DNA from: a virus
Lineage: Duplodnaviria; Caudoviricetes
Strand: one strand, 5' to 3'
Length of the DNA stretch: 64,000 bases
Virus record (IMG/VR): IMGVR_UViG_3300033463_000020
The notes under the pieces: model-generated
The model's input: only the letters and a program-made list of their open reading frames with translations
Told to the model about the DNA's origin: nothing
Databases searched by the model: none
Translations under genes and position numbers: made by a program
Part shown: positions 1,520-45,400 of the stretch, one piece after another
How positions within the stretch are numbered: position 1 is the stretch's first letter
Layout: each line of letters starts with the position of its first letter

Positions 1520-2260
1520 TTATGGTTCTGTTGTGATTTTTGATACCACATTTTGGAGGGTAGCTTGTGTAAGAGGGCCGAGATTTAATACCGGGTTTTT
1601 AGAATCGTCCGCCGGCACCTGCTCGTGCATCCAGACAAAGTCATAACACACGATCGGCTATTTGGAGCCTATCACGCGCATATTTAATCCGCAATATTTG
1701 TGCAAATATCGGGTCAGGGCCTCTTGCTGAACAGGAGAACACTGGTGCAACCCCGCTAAGTAAAAGATATTCTTACGATCATACCGAACCCAATAGCTGG
1801 GGTGAAAATTCTTGCGATAGAATACAATCAACGCCAGTAGTAGGGCCTTGCCATTGGCAGACAAGTCAGGCAGGGTTGCGCAAAATTCTGTGAACTTTTG
1901 ATAGTCCTCCAAGGTCAAAGAGAGCGTGGGAGCGGCTTCGGGGGATTCCGGTACTTCAAAAACAGCGGCGTCTAACAACGTCTTTTGAAAAGCGCCTGAA
2001 ACACAGCGATCATAAGCCACCGGGGCAATAGCTGAGGCCACAGTGGCTAGCAGCCCCAGCTGATCGGCCAAATAATTTTTGATTTCCTCGATAACAGTTT
2101 TTGAGGGCTTATGCTCAGCAACCCCCTGTAAATAGAGGGTATAGATTTGCTGCGCTTCGGAACTTTTTAATTTCAGAAACTCGCACGTAGACGCAACAGC
2201 GGCCGCCTCTGCTTTGGCGCGCATATCTTGTTTATTGCGAGCATTAGGTGTGGTCGCCAT
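1520..2260 (-). CDS. Hypothetical protein (1 in-frame TAG)
   Basis: ORF 1658-2260 continues through TAG to TAA at 1520-1522, just before the next RBS. Confidence 0.7.
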
Positions 2261-5213
2261 CGTTCTCGTCTCCTTGTGATTCTAGAATTTTTAATACGCT
2301 GTCCAATAGTGTCTGATCGGGATACTCTTCGTTTTCGATCATGTCTACGGCATCTAAAACATGCGATAGCTCATCATCCGAATCTTCGCCCAAATCTTTT
2401 AATGAATATGTCAAACCCAAATACGAGTACTCGCCGTCTGCGTCCTAGACCGGGCAATATGATTTACCGCGCGGTATAAGACGTACAACTTGGTCCCCCA
2501 GAACATTCCATGCAAAACCCCAGTTAAAGGATTTGTATTCTGGCGCCAAACGGGAAACATAAAACAAGAACTCCTCACCCGACATATTGGCGTTAACCAA
2601 TTCGGACTGCAGCGTTGTCACTAACGCATCGTGAGAGGAACGATAATATCGATCGTACAGCTCGTCTGTATGTGCCCCGGGATCCGAATACAAGATATCG
2701 GTAAGGGCGTGCAAATGTGTGATTTGCTTTCGAGCATTATAAGTTTTATACATCGTCCGCACAATACTTAGGCGGTCTTTGGAGAACTGGTCTGCGAATT
2801 GGGTTTCGAAAGTCGGTAACAATGATTTCGTAGTGGACTTTGTGCTTTTACCCCGGTCAAACTTAATATCGAAATCAATGCCTTCAATAGCTTTACAGAG
2901 CTTGTTCATGGTGCAGGGGGCCGTAATTAACGGAGAATACTTTTGATACTTTCGCACCAAATCGCGTTCTTCTTCGGTCTTGTCCTGCTTGGTTAACAGT
3001 TTTTTAAATTTGATACCAAAAGTATCACGGCTTACCTGGTTATATGAGAATTCAAATTCCTTAAACCGCTGGTTCAACTCGGGATAGATGTAGCGGAAAA
3101 AGTATGGCTTTTTACGCACAACCATTGCATTGGTTCGCATTTTACGAATAATTTCGTCTTGTGAATCAGTAGGTAGAATCTTTTCCGGGGTTTTCCACTC
3201 ACGAGGCAAAGAGGGCTTGTCTGCTCCCTTGATACGGTCGATCTCCTGGCCCACAATTTCGCGGAGCAGTTTAATACGCAGCATGATCTCATTGTACTGA
3301 TCTTCGTGTCCGGGTTTGTCAAATAGGGCTGCCATGGAATACAGGATTGTGGCGGTATTTGAAAATCCCCCTACGCCAGTACCAAAACCTTTAGAAACCG
3401 TCTGAGTAATATTGGGGATGGTCATTTTAGCAGGAACCGCCAGGCCTTTTTCATAGGTAATAATATTGTGGTCTTTATGTGCGCCCTTAATAAAATACTC
3501 ATTGTCTGTTGACAAGACAATGTCCCCATCAAAATCCGCATCCTCGGCCCGGAATGTGCCGGTATCGTGCGTGGAGAAGATGATGCCACTGGTTAAATAT
3601 CTATACCAATACGCCGCCTCGTCGGAATAATGCACTGTGCACGGATTGTGTTCATGCACGTCTATCATTGGGCTACGGCACAGATCCACGGTGTGCACGT
3701 TACGCTCTGTCCAGAATCGAGACCAGATCTCATCGCGCTGTAGCAGGCCATCAGAGGGCAAACCAAGCGCGGCCTGGCATTGCGCCACCGGATCAGAAAT
3801 CATGAACTGGTAATTACCGTGTATCCACACCTTGCCAATCTTTGCATGATCAATAGTCTCGACTAAATTGGAGTATAACTTGGATTGCACGTATGAGTCG
3901 TTCAAGAAGTCAATGTTTTTTATAAGGGCCTTAGTAATCGGCGTCTGCGCACTAGAATATAGAGAGTTAAATTGCACCCCCGAGGACTTGTGCCCAAAAG
4001 TGAACAGCATAGCAGCTAGTGGGTCGCCCGAACAAATGTCTTGCAACCACGTAATTGTTGGCTGTATCAGACCGTTAATATCTTCAGTGGTTAATGACAA
4101 CGCTTGTATATACTGATAATTGGCCAGAACGCACTCGTCGTCGTGGCGTTTGTTATAGCGCGCTACACCCCAGTGTATGTTTCCGCGTTGTGCATATGAG
4201 CAATACTCAGCCCAGCTATTATAATATTTCGCGGTTTTGAACTGCGATTCAGAGAGCAGAACGTCGATATCGTCGATATTATATTCTACTCCCCATCGAT
4301 CTTTAATGGTGGAAATATTGTGGGCGTGCGCAAACTCGCGAAAATCAAAGGTTGCAAGATTGCCCTTGATGAAGCATGAGCGCGCCACAAAGGAGCATGG
4401 TGTGTAACTCAAGCACATATCTTGCGCCCAAAGTTTCGCAAACTCCGGGTCGATTAATCCCTGGCCGTCAGCACAGTTTAGTTCTAGATCCATCCGGCGC
4501 TCAGTAATAAAAGCTTTGCCCTGGTCGTCATGGGAAATAAAATCTACGGGTTCTTTGGGCAGAGTGTGGAAGAAGTCTTTGATAATACATACTCGCGGCG
4601 TGCGCACCCAAAGAATGGAAGAAAAAGCGAGGGCAAAATATGCGCTATATTTAGCTAAAACAAATTCAGATGTCTTAGTCTCGAGACCGCAATTTAAGAT
4701 ATGAACCAATGTCTCACGATAGGCCTCGTTAACAAAAGTGGCCGTATTTCTCCGAATTTGTCCGCTACCGCTGCATAGGTAAATATATCGGACGCCATTC
4801 ACCACGAAACCTGTGGTCCGAAACTTGTGAAAATCTGTTTTTTTGCCATCCACAACGACATTAATGATGTCTTTAACGAACAGCACCTCCGAGATACGCT
4901 GTTCTAGCACATGTGCTTCCCGGTATTGCCCCTGCTTCTTGTACAGACGAGCGTTGCTGCGCAATTTAGAGACGTAGCTGAAAATCTCTTTGTGATCACG
5001 ATGATCATTGTGTAGATAGCGTAGCTACTGCAGCACCAAATTATCACCGATTGATACAACCAGATCGCCGATCCGGAACTCATCGGTGCCAATGTTGACA
5101 ATGCTGTCATCCCGAAGACGGTTATATAAATTTGGCGATGATAAATTGCAGTCGTTTTTGACAATTAATGAAGCAGGTAATTTGAAAATTCGGTATAGGT
5201 TTTGTACTACCAT
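2244..5213 (-). CDS. YonO-like single-subunit two-barrel RNA polymerase, 989 aa (2 in-frame TAG)
   Basis: ADGQGLI, FIKG, SQFK, CRSP and EDADFDGD motifs typical of YonO and RdRP-like enzymes; ORFs 5025-5213 and 2445-4964 are one frame joined through TAG at 5025; extends through TAG at 2445 to TAA at 2244. Confidence 0.85.
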
Positions 5214-5245
5214 TCCGATCCTTTCTTAGGGGGCTTATGCGGTGG

Positions 5246-5968
5246 TTAATCCCCACCGCAATATATAATCAAATTTGAATCCGCTAAGTCGATGGCACGT
5301 TGGAGCGCGGCTGCCAAGCGTTCGATCGCTCCGCGATAGAGGGGGTCGCCCGAGGTGTCGTACAATAATGGCGAGGAGTCATCTGCATCCACGTCAAATT
5401 CTACGTGCCCCAGCGCATCGTTGTTTAGGAACACATACGCTCCGTCGGCTGTAAAAACTGTCTTTTTGTCTGACGAGTCATAATAATAAGCATCCAATTT
5501 AGCTACCGGCAAAATTGGGTGGTCTTCCAACCACTTACACCAATATTGATATAATTTGACTAAATTTTCTTTGGTAAGATAATAATAGTCATCGGATCTC
5601 GTTTTTTCAGGGAAAACCGGGGTAGCGTACTCCAAAATTGATGAATGAAAACGCCTGCCAATACTACACCAGAAATCGATTAAGCCCGGATCGCGTCCGT
5701 TGGCCTGCTGAAATCGCCGGAGATAAGCATCCAAGACATGATCGTCGCATGTCAGATATTGCATTGCTGCATGATCGCAAGCATCAAATTCAAAAGTGTA
5801 ACCGTTAGCAATTTGTGTTTGATGCCAGTCATCCTCCAGCTGATGCTCATATTCGGCATATAAATACATGGCCAAAGTCTGTGCTGGCGTGAACGAGGTG
5901 TTGATAATTGGTATAAACGACAATACGCATTCAAATCCCATGGTTTTCCTCCTCTTCGCCATGTTCAT
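5246..5968 (-). CDS. Hypothetical protein
   Basis: Long ORF in a tightly packed minus-strand block; the true start may be the ATG near 5941 after GGAGG. Confidence 0.65.
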   Translation of the reverse strand: MNMAKRRKTMGFECVLSFIPIINTSFTPAQTLAMYLYAEYEHQLEDDWHQTQIANGYTFEFDACDHAAMQYLTCDDHVLDAYLRRFQQANGRDPGLIDFWCSIGRRFHSSILEYATPVFPEKTRSDDYYYLTKENLVKLYQYWCKWLEDHPILPVAKLDAYYYDSSDKKTVFTADGAYVFLNNDALGHVEFDVDADDSSPLLYDTSGDPLYRGAIERLAAALQRAIDLADSNLIIYCGGD

Positions 5969-6344
5969 GCATTGCGGCTAATTGTACCAGTTCGCCGTGG
6001 CTGTAATGTGTTGACGGTGTTGTGGTGAGCGTGCTGCATGTAATTTTCCAGGGGTTGTTCGAGCACCATTGACATGGCGAATCGCCAATCTGAATTTGAT
6101 CCCCCTTGGGTTTACTAAGACAGCCGGCACAGGGATCTTCGTTTTCTAAAATTACAGGCGATTCGATTACGGGTATAATCCGGTCAAATGTACGGATTTT
6201 TTCTAATTCTTTCCTGGTTTCTTCACATTCCTGGCGTAGTTCTTGAATACGTACAGCTAAAGCATCCAGCTGCTTTTGCACCGCTTCAAAATCATACTTT
6301 GGCGTTGCTGGCTTTGTTTCAGTTTTATAGCCGTGTTTTCTCAT
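5931..6344 (-). CDS. Hypothetical protein (coiled coil plus CxxC)
   Basis: AAGG RBS; overlaps neighbours. Confidence 0.65.
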   Translation of the reverse strand: MRKHGYKTETKPATPKYDFEAVQKQLDALAVRIQELRQECEETRKELEKIRTFDRIIPVIESPVILENEDPCAGCLSKPKGDQIQIGDSPCQWCSNNPWKITCSTLTTTPSTHYSHGELVQLAAMHEHGEEEENHGI

Positions 6345-7630: not shown

Positions 7631-8008
7631 TTAAAAATATCGTATCACGGTACTAGTGGGGATTTGCGAATTTTCAGCGGCGTCTAGTGCCACAACGTCG
7701 TATTCCGTTTGTGTAAGTACGTCAAGTTCTGACATATTGTCTGTGATCGCCAAAATACATTCTAGGATCTCAGGCAGCTCAGATAGCGTGCAAAAATATG
7801 TGTGGCATCCCGGATTGCAACTATCTAAATTGTATTTTCCTAAAATTATACGATAAGCGCAATTCTGGGCCGGGTTAGAGGATCCCAGCGCTCGCATACA
7901 ACGCCCCTCCGGGGATACAATACTAACATGAATTAGACGGTCTTTGAACATCTAATCATAATTTGTATTGGCATAAGTATTTAAATTGTCCATATGTGGT
8001 TTAGCCAT
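7631..8008 (-). CDS. Hypothetical protein (probably 1 in-frame TAG)
   Basis: ORF 7631-7951 extends upstream through TAG (7952-7954) to ATG at 8008, nearer the AAGGGAG RBS. Confidence 0.55.
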
Positions 8009-8093: not shown

Positions 8094-8122
8094 ATTATAT
8101 TGGGATTGTGTCATAATATCAA
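8094..8122 (-). promoter_or_regulatory. SigmaA-type promoter, CCCAATATAAT family
   Basis: TTGATA-17 bp-TATAAT with CCCAA before the -10 box. Confidence 0.8.
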
Positions 8123-8161: not shown

Positions 8162-8491
8162 TCACCCCCGTTGTTTCTTGGAAAGATTAGTTTTATACTC
8201 TCCCCAGTATAAATTATTAGCAGCGTTATTGTTTTTATTGCCATCTCGACGGAATACGCAATGATAATGCTGTGGATCTGGATTATTCACGAAGAGTTGT
8301 GCAACCAACTGATGAATCTTCACCCATGTGCCCGTATGAGTTCCAGGGGCGGCATGCAAGCACAAGATCGGATTGCCGTGGTCCCCGATGATAGGTTTCA
8401 AATATTGACCAGTGGCTAGGTATTTAACTACCCCGGCATCGTTGATTTGATATCTTCCTTCGAATCCAGGAATGTCTTTCCATATAGGCAT
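8162..8491 (-). CDS. NUMOD4 plus degenerate HNH endonuclease protein
   Basis: WKDIPGFEGRYQI (NUMOD4), IHQLVAQLF and VFRRDGNKNNNAANNLYW (HNH-like, usual His missing). Confidence 0.8.
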   Translation of the reverse strand: MPIWKDIPGFEGRYQINDAGVVKYLATGQYLKPIIGDHGNPILCLHAAPGTHTGTWVKIHQLVAQLFVNNPDPQHYHCVFRRDGNKNNNAANNLYWGEYKTNLSKKQRG

Positions 8492-8683: not shown

Positions 8684-8768
8684 TATTATATTGGGGTGTG
8701 GCCATTTGCGGGTGATTTTTGTATGTGAAAAGATAGGGGTGACAATTATCGCACACCCCAATATAATA
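8684..8768. promoter_or_regulatory. Divergent promoter pair forming a 17-bp perfect inverted repeat
   Basis: TATTATATTGGGGTGTG (8684-8700) and CACACCCCAATATAATA (8752-8768); the rightward copy has GTGACA-17-TATAAT, the leftward copy lacks a -35. Confidence 0.75.
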
Positions 8769-36442: not shown

Positions 36443-39400
36443 ATGGCAGAGTTTTTTGATAGTATGGATGAAGTGCTGGCAGAATTACAGCGGCAAAATG
36501 CATTGCCAGATTTCGCCAATCCTACGGTGTCTTCTGGCCTGGGGGCTGGACGTGGTTTTGAAACAGAGAACGCTGAAAGCAGTTTAAGGAAGATTGAACA
36601 GGCCGCCAAGAAAGCACATGACGCTGGTTTAGAGGCGAGCACGGTATGGCATAAAGTTGAAAGTAAGCTGCAGCAACAAGGATATCGTATGGTTATTCGG
36701 CGGTCTCCACGTGGCCGCAATGAGTTTGAAATCTTTGCCGTACCTGACAATTTGTCCAAGTAGGAGCGTTAGGATATGAAGGTCTTGACCCAGTATCCCA
36801 ATCTCGTATGGAGTGGGCTGGAGAATGGGTTAAGTTCGCGCTATGGGCAGAAAACGATTGACCAGGGCCGATTAGATTATCTGGATGGTGCCCTGGCGTT
36901 TTATACCAATGCTACGCAATAGGCACAGGCAATTTTAAATCGTCTGACCAATCCGCGTGGCGGTAATAACACTAGGTATAATGATTATGCTAAGCTTGCG
37001 CGCAATGCCAAAAATGAGCTTGAGCGTCGTATTGCATAGCGTCATATTAAGAGTTCCGTTGCTAATGCAGAACGACATGCTAACTCTGGTTACAATGCTG
37101 TTAATAGTTATTAGACCGATGAGTTGTGGAAAATGATGCAGGGCACTGGTACGGCCCGCTCGATTGCGCAGCGCAAGTCTCTGGTAAGCATTTAGCCGAT
37201 GGTGGACTCTATATTGAATAAGGAATTCAAATAGATCATCTAGGCCTATACTAGGGCCAACCCATCGCGGCAACTAAGCAATTAGCAATTCAAAGCACGT
37301 GCCGAGCAGGATATTTTCCATACCCTATATTGGTATTTACAAAATCGTGCCGTGGACGCTTTAGAGAAAGAGTTGACCGAAGCTTCCTCAAAAGGCTGGA
37401 ACGCTGGTTATCTTTGGAAGAATCCGGAAATTCGTAAGGTCCTGCAAAATGCTGGTAGGCAATTGCACGGATTGGGGGCCGATGTCGGTCTCACCGGTGA
37501 GAGCTCGGCCAACCAAATGATGATAAACCTATTGCGGCACGGTGACATTGGGGTTTTCGGTTCACTGGGGGATAAGTCCGGCCGTAAACCTATGCAAGTG
37601 GCACAAATGCGTTAGCGGCAATAGAGAGCGCAAGAGGCTCTGGTAAAAGCGCTGATGAACTCCGCAACAAGCGGCGGTCTTTACGGCAAACGTCGTGTAT
37701 ATACAGGATGGGAGGTTGCCGCGGGGCTGGACAAGCTTGCGGAAGAATAGGCCCAGACCGGCGTTATGTTTGCCACGGCCGAGGAAATCCGCAAGGCGCA
37801 ACAGGCTCTCATGACGAGGGAAAAAAATAAGCGCAGCGCTGCTTCTGTGGGATATGGCAGTCTGCCGCACAATGGTGGTATTTTTTATAGCAAGGCATTG
37901 GGAGCAACTTTGGATAGTCACCAATAGCGATCAATGTCGGTATCTATGGAGGCTTTTAAGCGCGCGCAAGATAAGTTGGTCGATAAATTGCTGACCCCCG
38001 AAACGCGTGCCGATACTATTAAGAGCGTTGCCAAGTCGATTAAGGCTGGCGCAGCCCCACGAGCAGCATTTACACAATGGATGTCAACTTTTGCGCCGGA
38101 TCAGCGAATCGATCAGAAACAATTTTGGGAAGCCTTAGAGGCGCAAGAGTTCGCGGCAGCCTATTCCGAGGCGTTGTAGCGGCAAACTAGTCGCGAAATC
38201 CTTAGGAGTCAGAAGGGTATCAAGTTATCAACGGTCGGTGATCTCGCCCGGGTCATTGAACGGGATCCCATGGGTAAGGATCAGGTCACTATTGAATGGC
38301 TCGAAAAACACGCCATGCAGTCTGGTGAAAAACTATTGGGTGGGGCGCACTTTGTCAAGGGGCGCGCTAAAGAGATTGAAAATTTCCAGGAGTTAGCAGA
38401 GTAGATTTGGCTTGCTCGCGGGAAGAGCGCAACCACTGCGAGCAGATTGGCGAACAGGGTTGGGTTGCTGATGGAGCCCGAGAAGTTAACATCACGGAAT
38501 CCCGATGCTTTTTTGGCTGCATTCTTCGATGAGATCACTCGCGCCTTGGGAGGGGCGGGCGGTTCTCAAACACTCCTCAACTCGTTTATTGAGAGCGTCA
38601 ATTAGACAGTAGACGGAAAGAAGTGGCTTGAGCAGGAAGGTGACCATTGGAAGACGAATTTTGACCGTTTCGCGCGTCGGCCTGGTGATAGTGATGCGAA
38701 GATACAAGAGGCACTTCAGTCATATGTGACGCAGGTATAGCGCGGTTTGGCTGATGTGACGGAGCAACTCACCAAGAGGGCAGGCACACTCACCAATGAC
38801 ACTTTGAAAGCTGACGTCAATGCTCTAAATGATGAGCTAACTATGATGGGTCAAGCCTTAACGATCAAGGACGGTCAGCTGAAATATGACCCCAGCAAGT
38901 TCATCGGTGCCACGACCGTGGGGCAGCATCATGCCTATGACTATGGAGACCCGGGCCGCGCAGTACTCAACGCGGATTATCGTTTAATTGGTGCCATCAG
39001 CCGTGGTATTTTACGTAGTAACTTAGGAGGCACGACCTCTCCTGAGTATGCGCGCGCTCTATTGGGGCAGCGCAGTCGCAATGGCACGCCTAACGGGCAA
39101 TATGCCTGGCAGTTAGATTTGGATGCCAACGGCAACATTATAAACGCCGGTCAATTTGGCGGAACAGCGGAATCGCGTCGTGCTCATGAGCAGTGGGTGA
39201 AAAGTTTGGCTGCTGTTAATGATGTCAAACAATGGATGAATACACAGGGTGGTACCTGGACGGTTGCGAATTGGATGGCCAAAGGTAATCAAGACATTGT
39301 TTTGGGACATGGTCAGCTCGCGGAGTTTTTAGGTGCTCATGGTGTAGACGCCGGCGCGTTGTCAAAAAAGTAGCTCGCACAGCTCAAGAAACGTTACTTA

Positions 39401-42400
39401 GATGTGAGCGGCTTGCATGATGATTCGTTTGCGTATAAGGGCGAGTATGACGAGGGACATATGTCTGCTGCCGATTTCGCATCGAGTTTTGGGCGCATTG
39501 CGAAACTTGAAAAAGCAAATGCGGGGCGTTTGCTGTTTGTGCCTTTAACCGGAGGTATCGCCGGATCGAGCTTGGGAAAATAGTTGGTAACGAGCGCAAT
39601 CGCCCTGCCGCGTATGGACGCGCTGGGGGGCGCCGTAGAGACTATTTTAGCCAATGGGAACCGTGGTTATGATATCCCGGAACCATTGCGTATACTGCCA
39701 AGCCTTATCAATGCGTAGGATGACGTGCATTTTGCGCGAACTGGTCAACTATCAATCACACCTAAAGAGGCTTCCGAAGCTTTTACACAAGCCGCTTTTG
39801 AGAATATCGGACGAATGGTAGCCTCTGTGGAGTCGAAAAATGGTTCGGTGTGGCAGGCTGGCAATAAGGCGAAGCTATATCATTCCGCGATTCGGCACGC
39901 TACGGCGCCCGACGTCAAAGGGGGCGCCTGGGGCGCATTGGGTGATGTGGCTACTCGTATGAACCCCGAGGATCTCGAGGCCATGCTGAGCAAACAGGAC
40001 CCAGACCAAACCGATGCTCAATATCTATCGCAGTTACAAACATAGTACTATTATTTATATTCAAATTTAGTTGAAGATCCCAAAAAATTAGAGGACATGT
40101 GGTCTGCGGTGAGCAGCCGGTACAAAGGACGCGCAGCCCTGACGAAGCATCTTACAGAGCTTGTGACCCGGGGATCGGATGCTTTTAACGCTCGTGCAGA
40201 ACTGGCTCAGCATAAGAAAGTAGCATTACATGGATTGGCGGGATTCGGTCTTCGTTATCCGTTGTCGAATGCCGAAGATACGCGTGCTGCGGATATTTTT
40301 GCTGATTCCGAGTTGGTGTCCGGTGAGGTTGTGGCGGCGCTCGGTGCTGGTGCCGGGCAAAACCTGGACTTCGATGGTGACACATATGCTACTGTGCTGC
40401 AAATGTTGGGTACCAGCGATCCAGCAGAGCGCGCGAAACTGGTAGCGCAGATGGTTCGGCAGAATGAGGTAGACCAGAATCTAATGCGTCGCCAGGCCGA
40501 TGCGTTCCGTGCGGATTATGAGAAAGAGTTAAAATCGGGAGTATCCTTGGAATCCATTGCACGGGCCGAGGCGGGCGAAGTTGCAGCGGTTACATCACGT
40601 TTAAACAAGGGGTTCACGGGACGATTTAGTAACCAGTTTTAGGCGATATCAGAGGCGTTGTCGTTGAACGAGCCATGGGCTGATCGTGACACACCTATGA
40701 ATGCAGAGGAACGTGCTGCGTTCTTATAGAATCAGGTGGTTCGCGCAGTATATGAAAGCTTTACGCAAGACGCTATTTCCTCTAAAAAGGTGCGCGAGCG
40801 TATCGAGGACCGATACGGTTCGGCTTGGGCTGGCAACTCCGGATACCTCTCTGAGATGGACAAGTTGTACGAATTGATCCAGGGCAAGAATACTTATGCC
40901 GGTATTGAGAGCATCAAAGATTTGGTGACTTTGGCTCAGGATCTGAAGATTCTGGGTACTGATGACAAGGGCGGAGTGTTTGGTTGGCGGTTGAATTCAC
41001 AATTGCTGGCAAAAATGGACCAGTTCAGCGACGATGAGGTGGCAAAAGCGCTGGGTGTGTCAACGGATGTTGTACGCGCCTGGAAGGATCCCAGCAATCA
41101 AGCTGCCACTCTTGGACTCACTGGCGATCAGCTTGCGCGTCTTATAGATACGGTTAACACGCGTGTGAAACGTGACACAGGGTCGGATATTGGCGCCGTC
41201 ATTCGTGATAAGATGAACCGCGCGGGTGGTATTGATGCGACATCAAACCCCATCTATCGCGTTGGCACTGATATGGGCACGGAAGCCCAGTATGAGCGGG
41301 TTAAAGAAACGAATGCGGCTCTAGCAGAAGCCGGCGCGCAAGCCGGGGCCTTCGGCGAAGCCCTGAAAAAAGCCACAGTAGCTTTAGATACAGCCACAGA
41401 CGAAGTTAAGGAAAGCACGGCCGCAGCTCAAAAGCGCGATGACGTCCTGGAGAATCTGGAATACGCGTTGAAACACCGTGCCACAGATGCGCCCGTAGCT
41501 GTTACGAGCTTAACGAGTAGTTTAGCGGGGGGCAATTTTGCTTCTGCGCTGGATAAGGCCGCGTTTGAGGAGGCGCTTATCCTGGCGCATGCAGATAACC
41601 CCAACGCCATTTAGTCGCTCGAAGGTTATGACGCTGAGACTTTTAAAAAGTTTCGTAATAGCCTGCTTGGTTCACGTCGTGGTACCATCGCCGACCAAGT
41701 AGAACAATTGGTGAATACGTACGGTCTGGACACGAGCCAAGTTAACAGTGTTGACGACTTCATTAAATTAGTTGAGGCAGATCCGAATGCACGTCAGGAT
41801 CTATACGAGTATAATCCCTCCGAGCACGCTATTGGTTTGGGGGTACTTCTTGGCCGTGGTGACGAATCTATTTATGGCAAGGATAGCGACGCACTGAAAG
41901 CAGCGCAGCGCAATCGTGCGCTTCAAGAGGCGTTGTTTGGTACCGAGAATGTAGATGCTGACCAATGGTCTCAACTCGTTAAAGGTTTTAACTTAGCAGA
42001 GGCGTTACAGCGCATGGCTTACAATGTGGGTGGCTAGTTTATTGGTCATGAATTTGGTGTTGTAGGCGGCAATGGCGCAGGTAACGCTGCCGGATGGAAC
42101 CATGGTCGTATTGACCTTTTGATGAAGAGCGTCGGAACACGTTCCGATGGTTCTACATATAATATTCTAGACGTTTTTGATAAAAAGAGTGTCCCGAGTT
42201 TAAGTCAGCTAGATAAATATGGACCTGGACTAAATTATCTCGCGCAGGTTGCTGTGTATGCAGAGGATCTGCGGTAGTTATAGGCTTATATTAATAAACA
42301 TGGCATAAAAACGCTGGGGCAATTAAAAGATAATAAAGAGTATTATTAGAACGCATGGCTGGCCAAGGGTGGCCGCGAGATTGATGATGAAACGTTTGCG

Positions 42401-45400
42401 TTATTGAGCGACCCCTCTACCGTTATTCGTGCTGCATTGACTTATGTAGACGATTATGGTAATATTCGAAATTATGACGTAGGCAGCGGTTTGGGTGGCG
42501 ATAAAGCATTGATGCGGCGTTTAGCAAATTATGCTATGCATGAAATCCCCGAGGCCAAGTGGGAGCCAGGCGATGCTGAGGTAATTAGACAAATCACGCG
42601 GATTAATAACCGAGGTGTAGCATTTGGCGGCCATGGTGGCGGCGGAGGCGGCGGCCCAGTTATTCCCATTGTTGGTGGAGCCGGAACGTCTGGCAACGGC
42701 GGCCTGATGAAAGAACTGAGCAGTGGCTTGGGTAAATATATCGGTCGTATTTTGGGCGGTAGTGGTTTGTATCGCTTATTTGCTAAGGTGCGCCAGGGGA
42801 TTGCATCTCTGGTAAAAGAGGCCACTGAACTGGACAAGACGTTGACGAACCTGCAAATTACTACTGGCGGTACACGTGAAGACACACGCCAACTGCTTTC
42901 TACATATGCGCAACTTGGACGTCAGCTCGGCGCTACCACACAAGAGGTAGCAGCTTCGGCGCTCGAATGGCAACGTTAGGGTTATGAGGCTGGCGAAGTG
43001 GCCGATCTGGTGACGTCATCTTTGTATCTAAGCAAACTCGGCATGATTGACGCCTCTACGGCAACGTAGAATTTAACTTCCGCCTTAAAGGGCTTTAAAA
43101 TCGCTGCATCTGAGTCTATGGATGTCGTCGATAAATTGACAGCAATTGACTTAAAAGCAGCAACTTCCGCGGGTGAAATTGCCAACGGCTTAGCCCAGTT
43201 TGCAAACATAGGTAGCTTGGCTGGTGTAAATCTTGACGAAGCGGCAGCGTATGTCGCGACAATCGCCGATGTTACCCAAATGAGTGGGTCGTCCGCAGGA
43301 CAAGCGCTAGAATGTTTTTGGCGCTTTATAGGGATAATACATAACCCTATTGGTAAAATCTTTTCTAATGATTAATATTAGATTTAATATTATGCTTGAA
43401 AACCCAGAAGTGGGCAACAAGGAGGAATTCGTTTTGATAGTTCAACAAAAATTGTGTAAATATTGTGGTAAGATATTTACACCCAATAGTCCGCGGCCCG
43501 ACTTGGTGCAATATTGTAGTCAGCATTGTAAATATGCGGCGGATTATAGTAAAAAATATCGTTATACTTATACGTGCACAAATTGTGGCGCCACAATTCA
43601 TCGCAGCCGCAAAATTACAGGGGCGTAGCCATTTTGTAATCAAGCATGTTTGAGCGCGTATGAGCATCGGCAATCGTATGAAACGCGCACATGTGAAAGT
43701 TGCGGGCAAATTTTCGAATGCGCCAAAACTAGCACGCAAAGGTTTTGTAGCCCTGAATGCCAAATTACGTGGCAGCGTGAGTATCCGAGGAGTGGGGGCG
43801 ATCACCCCGCATATCGGCACGACGTCAGCATCGCTGAGCGTACAATAGTTTGTGCATGGTGTGGCGTATCTTTTGTTGTCGAACCATGGCAAATTTCTAA
43901 AACTAAATTTTGTTCGCGTTAGTGTAAGCATGCAGCAATGTTAGATGCGGCACGTACCCAAAAAACTTGGGCTGAGCGTGTGGATACGGCTCCTTAGCGC
44001 ATCGCCAATGCTTTACTAGAGAGGTTGGGGATCGCATTTGTAAATGAGTATCCGTGCGGCTATTTTAGTTTAGATATTTATTGTGCAGAATTGCATATGC
44101 CCATTGAGGTGATGGGTACGTATTGGCACGCAGATCGCCGTATATATTCGACATTATCTGAAATATAGCGTCGAGATATCATTCAGGATAAGCGCAAACG
44201 CACATATGTACGGAATCATTTATCGGCCGAGATCTTATATCTTTGGGAGCAAGATTTATATGACGACCCGGCATTATGCGCGGCTTTGGTATCTTTATAT
44301 ATTGAATAGCATGGACAACTATTGAACTATCATTCACATAATTATCATCTAGAGAACGGACAGGCGGTGTTGAACGATTGTCCATTGGAAAATTATGTGG
44401 ACGCTGAGAATGATTACCACTCATTACTTGGCAACGGAGCCTTGAACGACTGAATGAAAAGACCCCATTTCGATGGGGATGCGACAGTCTGAACACGGGT
44501 ATAACAACAAGAAGCCCGTGAGCCGCGGTCGAGTGTAAAGACACTCTTGGAAGCACCGTGGCCCTCCGATAATAACAGGAGAGTAACAAAATTGTAAAAC
44601 AATTATATCACGCTATGGTAATGTTAAAGCCGGGGCTTTTAATAAAATGACCCTGGATGCCGACACTGGTGATGGAACCACGTTAAACGATGTTGAGCGT
44701 GTTTTATCCAAGCTGGGCATCAGTATTCGTGATAGCAATCTGTCGTTTAAAGATTTTAGCACCATTCTAGAAGAGATTGCCTCTAGATGGCAGACGTTAG
44801 ATAACGTTTCGCAACGTGCGATTGCAAATGCGTTTGCCGGCGTAAGACAGCAAGAGGCTTTTACGACTCTACTTTAGAACTGGGATAAATATCAAGAGTT
44901 ATTAGCAACCTCGCAGCAGTCCAAGGGTACTGCCGAAACCAAGTACGCGGCATACTAGTAGTCTTTGCAAGCGGCTCAAAGCGCACGTAAGACGACTTGG
45001 GAACAATTAGCCAACAGCGCAGAAATTTCTGAGCTACTAATTGCGATTAATAACGTGGGCAGATGGTTGGGAGAGTTTGTTCCCTTTCTGCTGAAGTGGT
45101 TACCACATGCGTTAATTTTAGCCGATCAGATCTTTTCAATACGCGGCGGCGGGTTTTTGAATGGCTTAATTAATTAGTTCTCACAAATGAAATTATTTTC
45201 AGCGCATAGCTTGAAAAATGAGAAATAGAAAACCCAAGAAACCAAAAAGCAGTATCGGGCCGAGCAGCAGAAGACTGAAGAAGAGAAGCATTAGGTGCAA
45301 GCGGAGCAAGAGCAAACTCGCCAAGATCAGCAACAAGCAGCAGGAGGATCGGGAGATGGCAAGACATCTGCCCGAGGCCGGGGCGGCGCGCATAGCAAGG

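Follow-up and report, generated by a model that had tools for sequence, protein, structure and literature searches.

A single-chain RNA polymerase gene carrying reassigned stop codons in a recoded phage genome and its recoded relatives

Polymerase gene and its in-frame TAG codons

The window analysed here, a 64,000-nucleotide (nt) stretch corresponding to bases 40030-104029 of a 149,604-bp virus record with terminal repeats (IMGVR_UViG_3300033463_000020; the genome is called G000 below), carries on its minus strand, at 2244..5213, a gene for a single-chain two-barrel polymerase of the YonO/QDE-1 type in which the stop codon TAG occurs twice in frame. The open frame has 989 codons if TAG is taken as a residue, yielding a protein of 989 amino acids (aa) when TAG is read as glutamine (Gln), and it contains no internal TAA or TGA; genetic code table 11 splits it into pieces of 62, 839 and 58 aa. 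A preliminary description of the same DNA had proposed a stand-alone YonO-like polymerase with a TAG at codon 63 and another near the C-terminus, to be checked by a profile search against YonO. Its coordinates and both TAG positions are exact, and the assignment is borne out by the Pfam match, by tblastn to yonO and by structural matches.

The polymerase matches the Pfam family RdRP (PF05183) above its cut-off (35 bits against 23.8, E-value 9e-9), together with two PHROG families, both of unknown function. In a tblastn search, yonO of SPbeta (SPBc2) aligns with residues 135-626 at 26% identity (E 1e-29), and 'RNA-dependent RNA polymerase' genes of Enterocloster, Thomasclavelia, Clostridium and Bacillus phages are matched as well. 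Homologues number 701 at E <= 1e-5 and extend over the whole frame, the two closest being 83% and 74% identical; the best 120 of the 701 are full-length (~960-1000 aa), lie on contigs of up to ~155 kb and nearly all carry PF05183. Since the whole frame is homologous to several hundred proteins, across both TAG codons, it does not represent a chance open frame.

The motif EDADFDGD occupies residues 557-564 and includes the catalytic aspartate triad, DFDGD (residues 560-564; 3522..3536, minus strand), whose D560, D562 and D564 are invariant in an alignment of 41 sequences, as are R513 and P515 of the preceding R-x-P motif. An AlphaFold model built on this alignment has a predicted local distance difference test (pLDDT) score of 84.9 and a predicted template-modelling (pTM) score of 0.78. 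Its best structural matches in Foldseek are RDR2 and QDE-1 (PDB 2J7N, 7W82, 7ROZ; E 1e-15 to 1e-13, TM 0.40-0.48), spanning ~900 columns at 11-13% identity, followed by the non-virion polymerases gp62/gp64 of Thermus phages (E 1e-6) and crAss-like gp66 (E 2e-5); phmmer of the polymerase against PDB sequences returned nothing relevant. The Pfam and yonO matches, the aspartate triad and the model with its Foldseek matches place the protein, on sequence and predicted structure, in the YonO/QDE-1 clade of single-chain two-barrel polymerases.

The active site is interrupted in some homologues. In four relatives, an insertion of 283-1174 nt, accompanied by a frame change, is found at or beside the catalytic DFDGD codons, lying between D562 and G563 in L020:5663-6071, L093:1277-2445 and L095:1175-2348, and at 560/561 in L096:2066-2348. 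These resemble introns at the active site, and an Rfam search of the insertions splitting DFD and GD recovered no intron family. A HEARO RNA (RF02033, 111 bits) is present at L020:7342-7556, just 3' of a relative's polymerase gene. In a distant relative (L022:4001-6889, 29% identity), an in-frame TAA is found at residue 581, a position elsewhere always occupied by Asp or Glu; a nonsense mutation, an error in sequencing or a further reassignment may explain it.

The first TAG of the G000 gene, codon 63 (5025..5027, minus strand), stands opposite Gln (CAA or CAG) in all close relatives and falls in a predicted helix, residues 59-67, modelled at pLDDT ~90. The second, codon 923 (2445..2447, minus strand), lies in the conserved C-terminal block YCPVxDxDGEYSYLG, within a predicted strand (919-923); relatives have K, R, H or L at this position, and homology extends past it. 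Judged from alignment and model, both TAGs are sense codons within conserved, well-folded segments. Just upstream of codon 63, residues 37-50 (window 5064-5105) form a 14-aa insertion found in this genome alone, which resembles a partial duplication (IVNIGTDEF beside VVSIGDNLV).

Translation from a start downstream of the first TAG would relieve the enzyme of its dependence on suppression. According to this alternative, a shorter product of 839 aa, running from TTG at 4964 to TAG923 and holding the YonO-homologous core (135-626), would be the working enzyme; the table-11 open reading frame (ORF) 2445-4964 does exist, and the similarity to SPbeta YonO is limited to that core. However, no Shine-Dalgarno-like site precedes the TTG, while a Shine-Dalgarno-like GAAAGGA, read from the sequence at 5219..5225 (minus strand), lies 5 nt before the ATG at 5213. 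Residues 1-62 are conserved among relatives and confidently modelled, residues 1-83 and 924-940 are conserved clade-wide and confidently folded, and the core itself is riddled with TAG in the related genome G011 and with TGA in G003 and G004. An internal start, which the preliminary description had named as an outcome that would speak against it, was rejected for want of a ribosome-binding site and for the conserved N-terminus, and is highly improbable.

Code switch and recoded stops among relatives

TAG in G000 is a Gln codon, as read from alignments: genome-wide, it stands opposite Gln in standard-code relatives at 39% of 174 aligned positions, against a background of 4%. A transfer RNA (tRNA) with anticodon CTA was located by ARAGORN at genome positions 119879-119953, beside tRNA-Gln(TTG), in a cluster of nine tRNAs, and displays the Gln-like features U1, G2, G3, G10 and G73. 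A promoter-like TGGACA-17-TATAAT site is placed 56 nt ahead of the cluster's first tRNA and 330 nt upstream of tRNA-CTA. No release-factor or GlnRS gene was found in the genome, and Rfam detected no HDV-like ribozyme beside the suppressor tRNA. The cluster also contains a drum RNA (RF02958, 46 bits against a cut-off of 43) at L011:6912-7030 (genome 121911-122029).

The genes of G000 fall into distinct codon classes. TAG is absent from Pol III alpha (1312 aa), DnaB, primase, a sigma-70-family gene and the large genes of the left block, where ~4,000 codons hold none, whereas virion genes contain up to 30. A sporadic TAG occurs in an IscS-like gene and in a RecD2-like helicase gene (codon 529, in the ATPase domain; genome 109988-112381, plus strand, L010:9989-12382, outside the window), the latter being the only large replication gene of G000 to carry one. 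The TAG-free sigma-70-family gene (regions 2, 3 and 4; genome 19277-20173, minus strand, L008:4278-5174, likewise outside the window) is preceded by a perfect TTGACA-17-TATAAT; the gene is conserved in G001-G003 and was not found in G004 and G005.

The host itself, which is likely to belong to the rumen or gut Firmicutes, might read TAG as an amino acid, in which case the TAGs would carry no timing information. The avoidance of TAG in replication and sigma genes argues against this, as does the presence of matching suppressor tRNAs in the recoded phages and of none in their standard-code sisters; hardly any credence is given to such a host. Constitutive suppression by the host, a further outcome that would have told against the preliminary description, was likewise not borne out, given a tRNA-CTA with its own predicted promoter and replication genes avoiding TAG and TGA. 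The sequences thus support a suppression of TAG that is supplied by the phage and is not constitutive.

Five related genomes were taken whole for comparison and six more were probed. The clade shows 57-70% identity in the polymerase and a GC content from 29% to 48%, and comprises standard-code, TAG=Gln and TGA=Trp members. The polymerase gene contains recoded stops in 5/5 recoded lineages: two TAG in G000, one in G002 (codon 20) and nine in G011 under TAG=Gln, and six TGA in G003 and seven in G004 under TGA=Trp, all of these TGA at conserved tryptophan (Trp) positions. The suppressor tRNA matches the code in G000 and G002 (tRNA-CTA) and in G003 and G004 (tRNA-TCA). No recoded stop occurs in the polymerase gene of the standard-code genomes G001 and G005, in which no suppressor tRNA was found, of G006, G007 and G008, whose standard code is read from a TerL gene without internal stops, or of G010, where TerL is not on the fragment and the code was not read. 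Short metagenome contigs with relatives also have a stop-free polymerase gene, and the code was not read from these contigs. DnaB, primase and Pol III alpha are free of recoded stops in every recoded genome, and RecD2 has its single TAG in G000 only. In the polymerase tree, recoded lineages are interspersed with standard ones, G004 grouping with G005 and G006 at 0.985 support.

Two further candidates were rejected. TAA codons inside the late genes of G005 proved to be terminal stops and do not indicate recoding, and the phAss-1 group (PMC10607447) is not this clade, as TerL matches only distant Bacillus phage terminases.

Given that each of the five recoded lineages has recoded stops in the polymerase gene and none in DnaB, primase or Pol III alpha, the enzyme appears to be a product of the period after the code switch. 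It is firmly supported by the sequences that full-length polymerase could not be made in G000 before the suppressor tRNA acts, and that the same would hold in the five recoded lineages under two codes. As to the retention of a TAG in this gene, which had been suggested as a test, recoded stops are present in every recoded lineage, although their positions are not kept.

The extent of recoding differs between the lineages. TGA makes up 0.46 of the Trp codons of the polymerase gene in G003 and 0.54 in G004, compared with 0.48 and 0.43 in virion genes and 0.08 and 0 in replication genes, and the excess over replication genes is significant (Fisher p 0.005 and 2e-5, respectively). TAG makes up 0.05 of its Gln codons in G000, 0.02 in G002 and 0.22 in G011, the corresponding shares in G000 and G002 being 0.19 in virion genes and 0.013 and 0 in replication genes. 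The polymerase TAG share of G000 and G002 is significantly lower than that of virion genes and does not significantly exceed that of replication genes (p 0.17 and 0.25). The TAG positions vary with lineage (codons 63 and 923, codon 20, and nine others), which is as expected from neutral exchange of CAG and TAG once suppression exists. In the three TAG lineages, the first 7% of the gene accounts for 5/12 TAGs (binomial 0.001), while virion-gene TAGs are evenly spread; this N-terminal excess is only suggestive, as the 7% limit was set with the data in view and no other part is as variable as the N-terminus.

These figures bear upon the possibility that recoding of the polymerase is passive, the enzyme being the product of a middle or late gene into which stops drift with no regulatory role, since suppressor is on hand by the time of its translation, and late timing being set by the sigma factor and promoters. 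The unconserved TAG positions, the virion-gene-like density of recoded stops in G003, G004 and G011, and the sporadic TAGs in RecD2 and the IscS-like gene of G000 are all in keeping with such drift. Pure drift does not predict the low TAG share of G000 and G002 or the N-terminal clustering, although the variable N-terminus could account for the latter. Passive recoding is regarded as possible rather than probable.

Polymerase operon and a second candidate polymerase

The polymerase gene belongs to a leftward operon that diverges from the structural operon. A sigma-70-like promoter, TTGATA-17-TATAAT (8094..8122, minus strand), stands in intergenic DNA at the head of the polymerase operon and agrees with the consensus at 11/12 positions; a comparable site occurs 474-553 nt upstream of the polymerase start in G001, G003, G004 and G005. 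The first gene of the operon (7631..7951, minus strand) would encode a small conserved protein of ~106 aa, recognised by a hidden Markov model of the small proteins of eight relatives, which matches only this ORF in the genome (E 2.8e-4). In the relatives, the small protein (~110 aa) is encoded directly upstream of the polymerase and a gene of ~240 aa directly after it; in G000, this region also holds several extra ORFs, one of them with a NUMOD4 motif. The ORF directly upstream of the polymerase gene (5246..6130, minus strand; up to 294 aa) belongs to no known family, and no counterpart was found in the relatives. The conserved 246-aa gene after the polymerase (1520..2260, minus strand) overlaps it by 17 nt and has a TAG at codon 201, which is read through, as the alignment with L086 reaches residue 246. 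An orthologue lies beside the polymerase in every relative and carries TGA in G003 and G004; the protein has no Pfam match.

The rightward structural operon is headed by a sigma-70-like site of its own, GTGACA-17-TATAAT (8739..8767, plus strand), and in 7/7 genomes a similarly arranged site stands before the orthologue of its first gene. Between the two operons is a 109-aa ORF with a NUMOD4 motif, a DNA-binding module of the homing-endonuclease type (window 8162-8491, minus strand), which is absent from that place in the relatives. Predicted sigma-70 sites with at least 11/12 agreement, which are matches to the consensus and no proof of function, stand before the sigma gene, the replication module, the tRNA cluster, the polymerase operon and the structural operon, and there is none inside the 49-98-kb structural block. 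The host-type promoters of the preliminary description are thus present as consensus matches, two of them being conserved in relatives.

The window further encodes a giant protein of 2310 aa with 30 TAG codons (36443..43375, plus strand), which has a C-terminal tape-measure domain and is a candidate virion polymerase. It bears a DFDGD at residues 1309-1313 (40367..40381, plus strand; the motif is read as NLDFDGD), and the giant orthologues of all six genomes have a D-x-DGD between residues 1170 and 1320. A profile search collected 58 relatives of the giant protein, mostly of 2000-4500 aa; in 35 of these, R-x-P, D-x-DGD, GxFSN and QxxISxKK show little or no variation, D-x-DGD being strictly invariant. 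The AlphaFold model of the motif region is poor (pLDDT 54), and Foldseek with VIA-align on this poor model retrieved only helical look-alikes. A profile search against PDB sequences gave sub-significant matches over the motif region (P23-45 gp96, E 0.24; beta', E ~2), tblastn of the region against GenBank phages gave no match, and when the two polymerase candidates were compared by BLASTP and hhalign, nothing beyond the DFDGD motif aligned, and that without significance. On its motifs, the giant protein is likely to be the virion polymerase; of the virion RNA polymerase postulated earlier, the conserved motifs in a giant tape-measure protein are present, while the fold is not confirmed.

The tape-measure gene itself is seemingly interrupted by an inserted element, either an intron or a homing-type insert, because the tape-measure PHROG profile ends with the 2310-aa ORF (profile positions 598-775) and resumes in the next ORF, of 1554 aa (788-903; window 43350-44646), beyond a stretch of ~1.2 kb that holds a 367-aa ORF with five TAGs.

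With regard to the stand-alone polymerase, the virion-like codon usage could also arise if the enzyme were packaged as a late protein and acted in the next infection, in the manner of the N4 or crAss-like virion polymerase. Packaging would explain the codon class shared with virion genes and the equal TGA share in G003 and G004, and the gene borders on the structural module; in several relatives and cultured phages it is situated at the end of a contig or genome. Nevertheless, the gene is encoded on the strand opposite to that module, within a separate operon headed by a host-type promoter, a candidate virion polymerase fused to the tape measure is already present, and YonO is not a virion protein (PMC5467207). 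Packaging is very unlikely and, like an internal start and a recoded host, has little support.

Proposed role and comparison with known systems

The reading favoured here, with moderate confidence, is that the polymerase is an active non-virion DNA-dependent enzyme which is made only after the code switch and most likely serves late transcription. The leftward operon encoding the small protein, the polymerase and the 246-aa protein would be transcribed from its host-type promoter, and because of this promoter the polymerase mRNA is probably made by the host polymerase. The phage tRNA(CTA), whose cluster is also preceded by a host-type promoter, would supply Gln at both TAGs and thus permit synthesis of the full-length enzyme. 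Synthesis of the polymerase would therefore await the build-up of the suppressor and follow that of the sigma factor and of the products of the stop-free replication genes; by analogy with SPbeta YonO, the enzyme would then most likely take over or reinforce transcription of the long, TAG-rich virion and lysis blocks. Of the code-gated cascade proposed in the preliminary description, the dependence of the enzyme on suppression stands; its role in late transcription and a selected gate, like the timing, the template genes and the regulatory purpose of the stops, we infer.

Several observations weigh against late transcription by this enzyme or against a designed gate. The structural operon has its own sigma-70-like promoter, and since this is conserved before the first structural gene in 7/7 genomes, host polymerase may start late transcription; the phage sigma factor could also direct it. 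Upstream of late genes, a k-mer search for common motifs other than sigma-70 found only AT-rich strings and Shine-Dalgarno sites, and hence no candidate promoter motif for the phage polymerase. The polymerase gene of G000 has a low TAG count, its TAG share in G000 and G002 falls short of that of virion genes, the TAG positions shift between lineages, and RecD2 contains one TAG as well. Moreover, P23-45, the only studied phage with a tape-measure-fused polymerase, has a second polymerase that acts early (PMC10770324).

A more far-reaching proposal takes the code switch as a master timer for a programme of several polymerases, in which a host-made suppressor tRNA licenses the late polymerase, at least one stop, preferably N-terminal, is kept in the gene by selection, and the arrangement arose repeatedly under TAG=Gln and TGA=Trp. 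This version is considered doubtful.

The proposed function is modelled on SPbeta, whose late genes are transcribed by YonO (PMC5467207, Forrest et al. 2017). As with SPbeta YonO, the G000 polymerase is a single-chain two-barrel enzyme with a catalytic DxDGD triad, encoded by a gene adjoining the late operon (PMC5467207). Unlike YonO, it has ~360 extra C-terminal residues and a conserved N-terminal domain, and, unlike SPbeta, the 150-kb phage encoding it looks lytic and has a recoded genome with reassigned stops in the polymerase gene. The fold and the Pfam family are shared with QDE-1 and RDR2 at 11-13% identity, although those are RNA-templated enzymes of eukaryotic RNA interference.

The genome also resembles that of the Thermus siphophage P23-45, which combines a giant tape-measure protein containing a DxDGD polymerase-like region (gp96) with a separate single-chain two-barrel polymerase. 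In P23-45, the second polymerase, gp64, is a pre-early product that serves early and middle genes, late genes being transcribed by the host polymerase (PMC10770324, Chaban et al. 2024). P23-45 is not recoded, unlike G000, where the second polymerase would be available only after the code switch and host-type promoters precede the early genes. The codon class argues against a pre-early role of the G000 polymerase, which is recoded while the early genes are not.

In recoded gut phages (crAss-like, Lak, Agate, Jade and others), recoding has been proposed to time late protein synthesis (bioRxiv 10.1101/2021.08.26.457843; PMC7886860, Yutin et al. 2021). The present clade is similar in that virion and lysis genes are recoded, replication genes are standard, the suppressor tRNA is phage-borne and codes differ among close relatives. 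The preprint of Borges et al. treats recoding as post-transcriptional control, without mention of an RNA polymerase; here, unlike in that work, the non-virion polymerase gene is itself recoded, in TAG and TGA lineages. Late-gene recoding, YonO as a late polymerase and the combination of a tape-measure-fused with a second polymerase (P23-45) are already known. A dedicated non-virion polymerase placed repeatedly in the recoded class, under two reassignments, was not found in the searched literature.

There is as yet no settled answer as to why phages reassign stop codons; the prevailing view holds that translation of virion and lysis proteins is thereby delayed. In this clade, the phage's own transcription enzyme also lies behind the switch, under two reassignments, and its standard-code, TAG and TGA members, at 57-70% protein identity, constitute natural controls. 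The findings further extend YonO-like polymerases to a large uncultured group of 130-155-kb phages, probably with a second, tail-fused polymerase. Should the enzyme prove to drive transcription of the late genes, a single tRNA would govern both levels of their expression.

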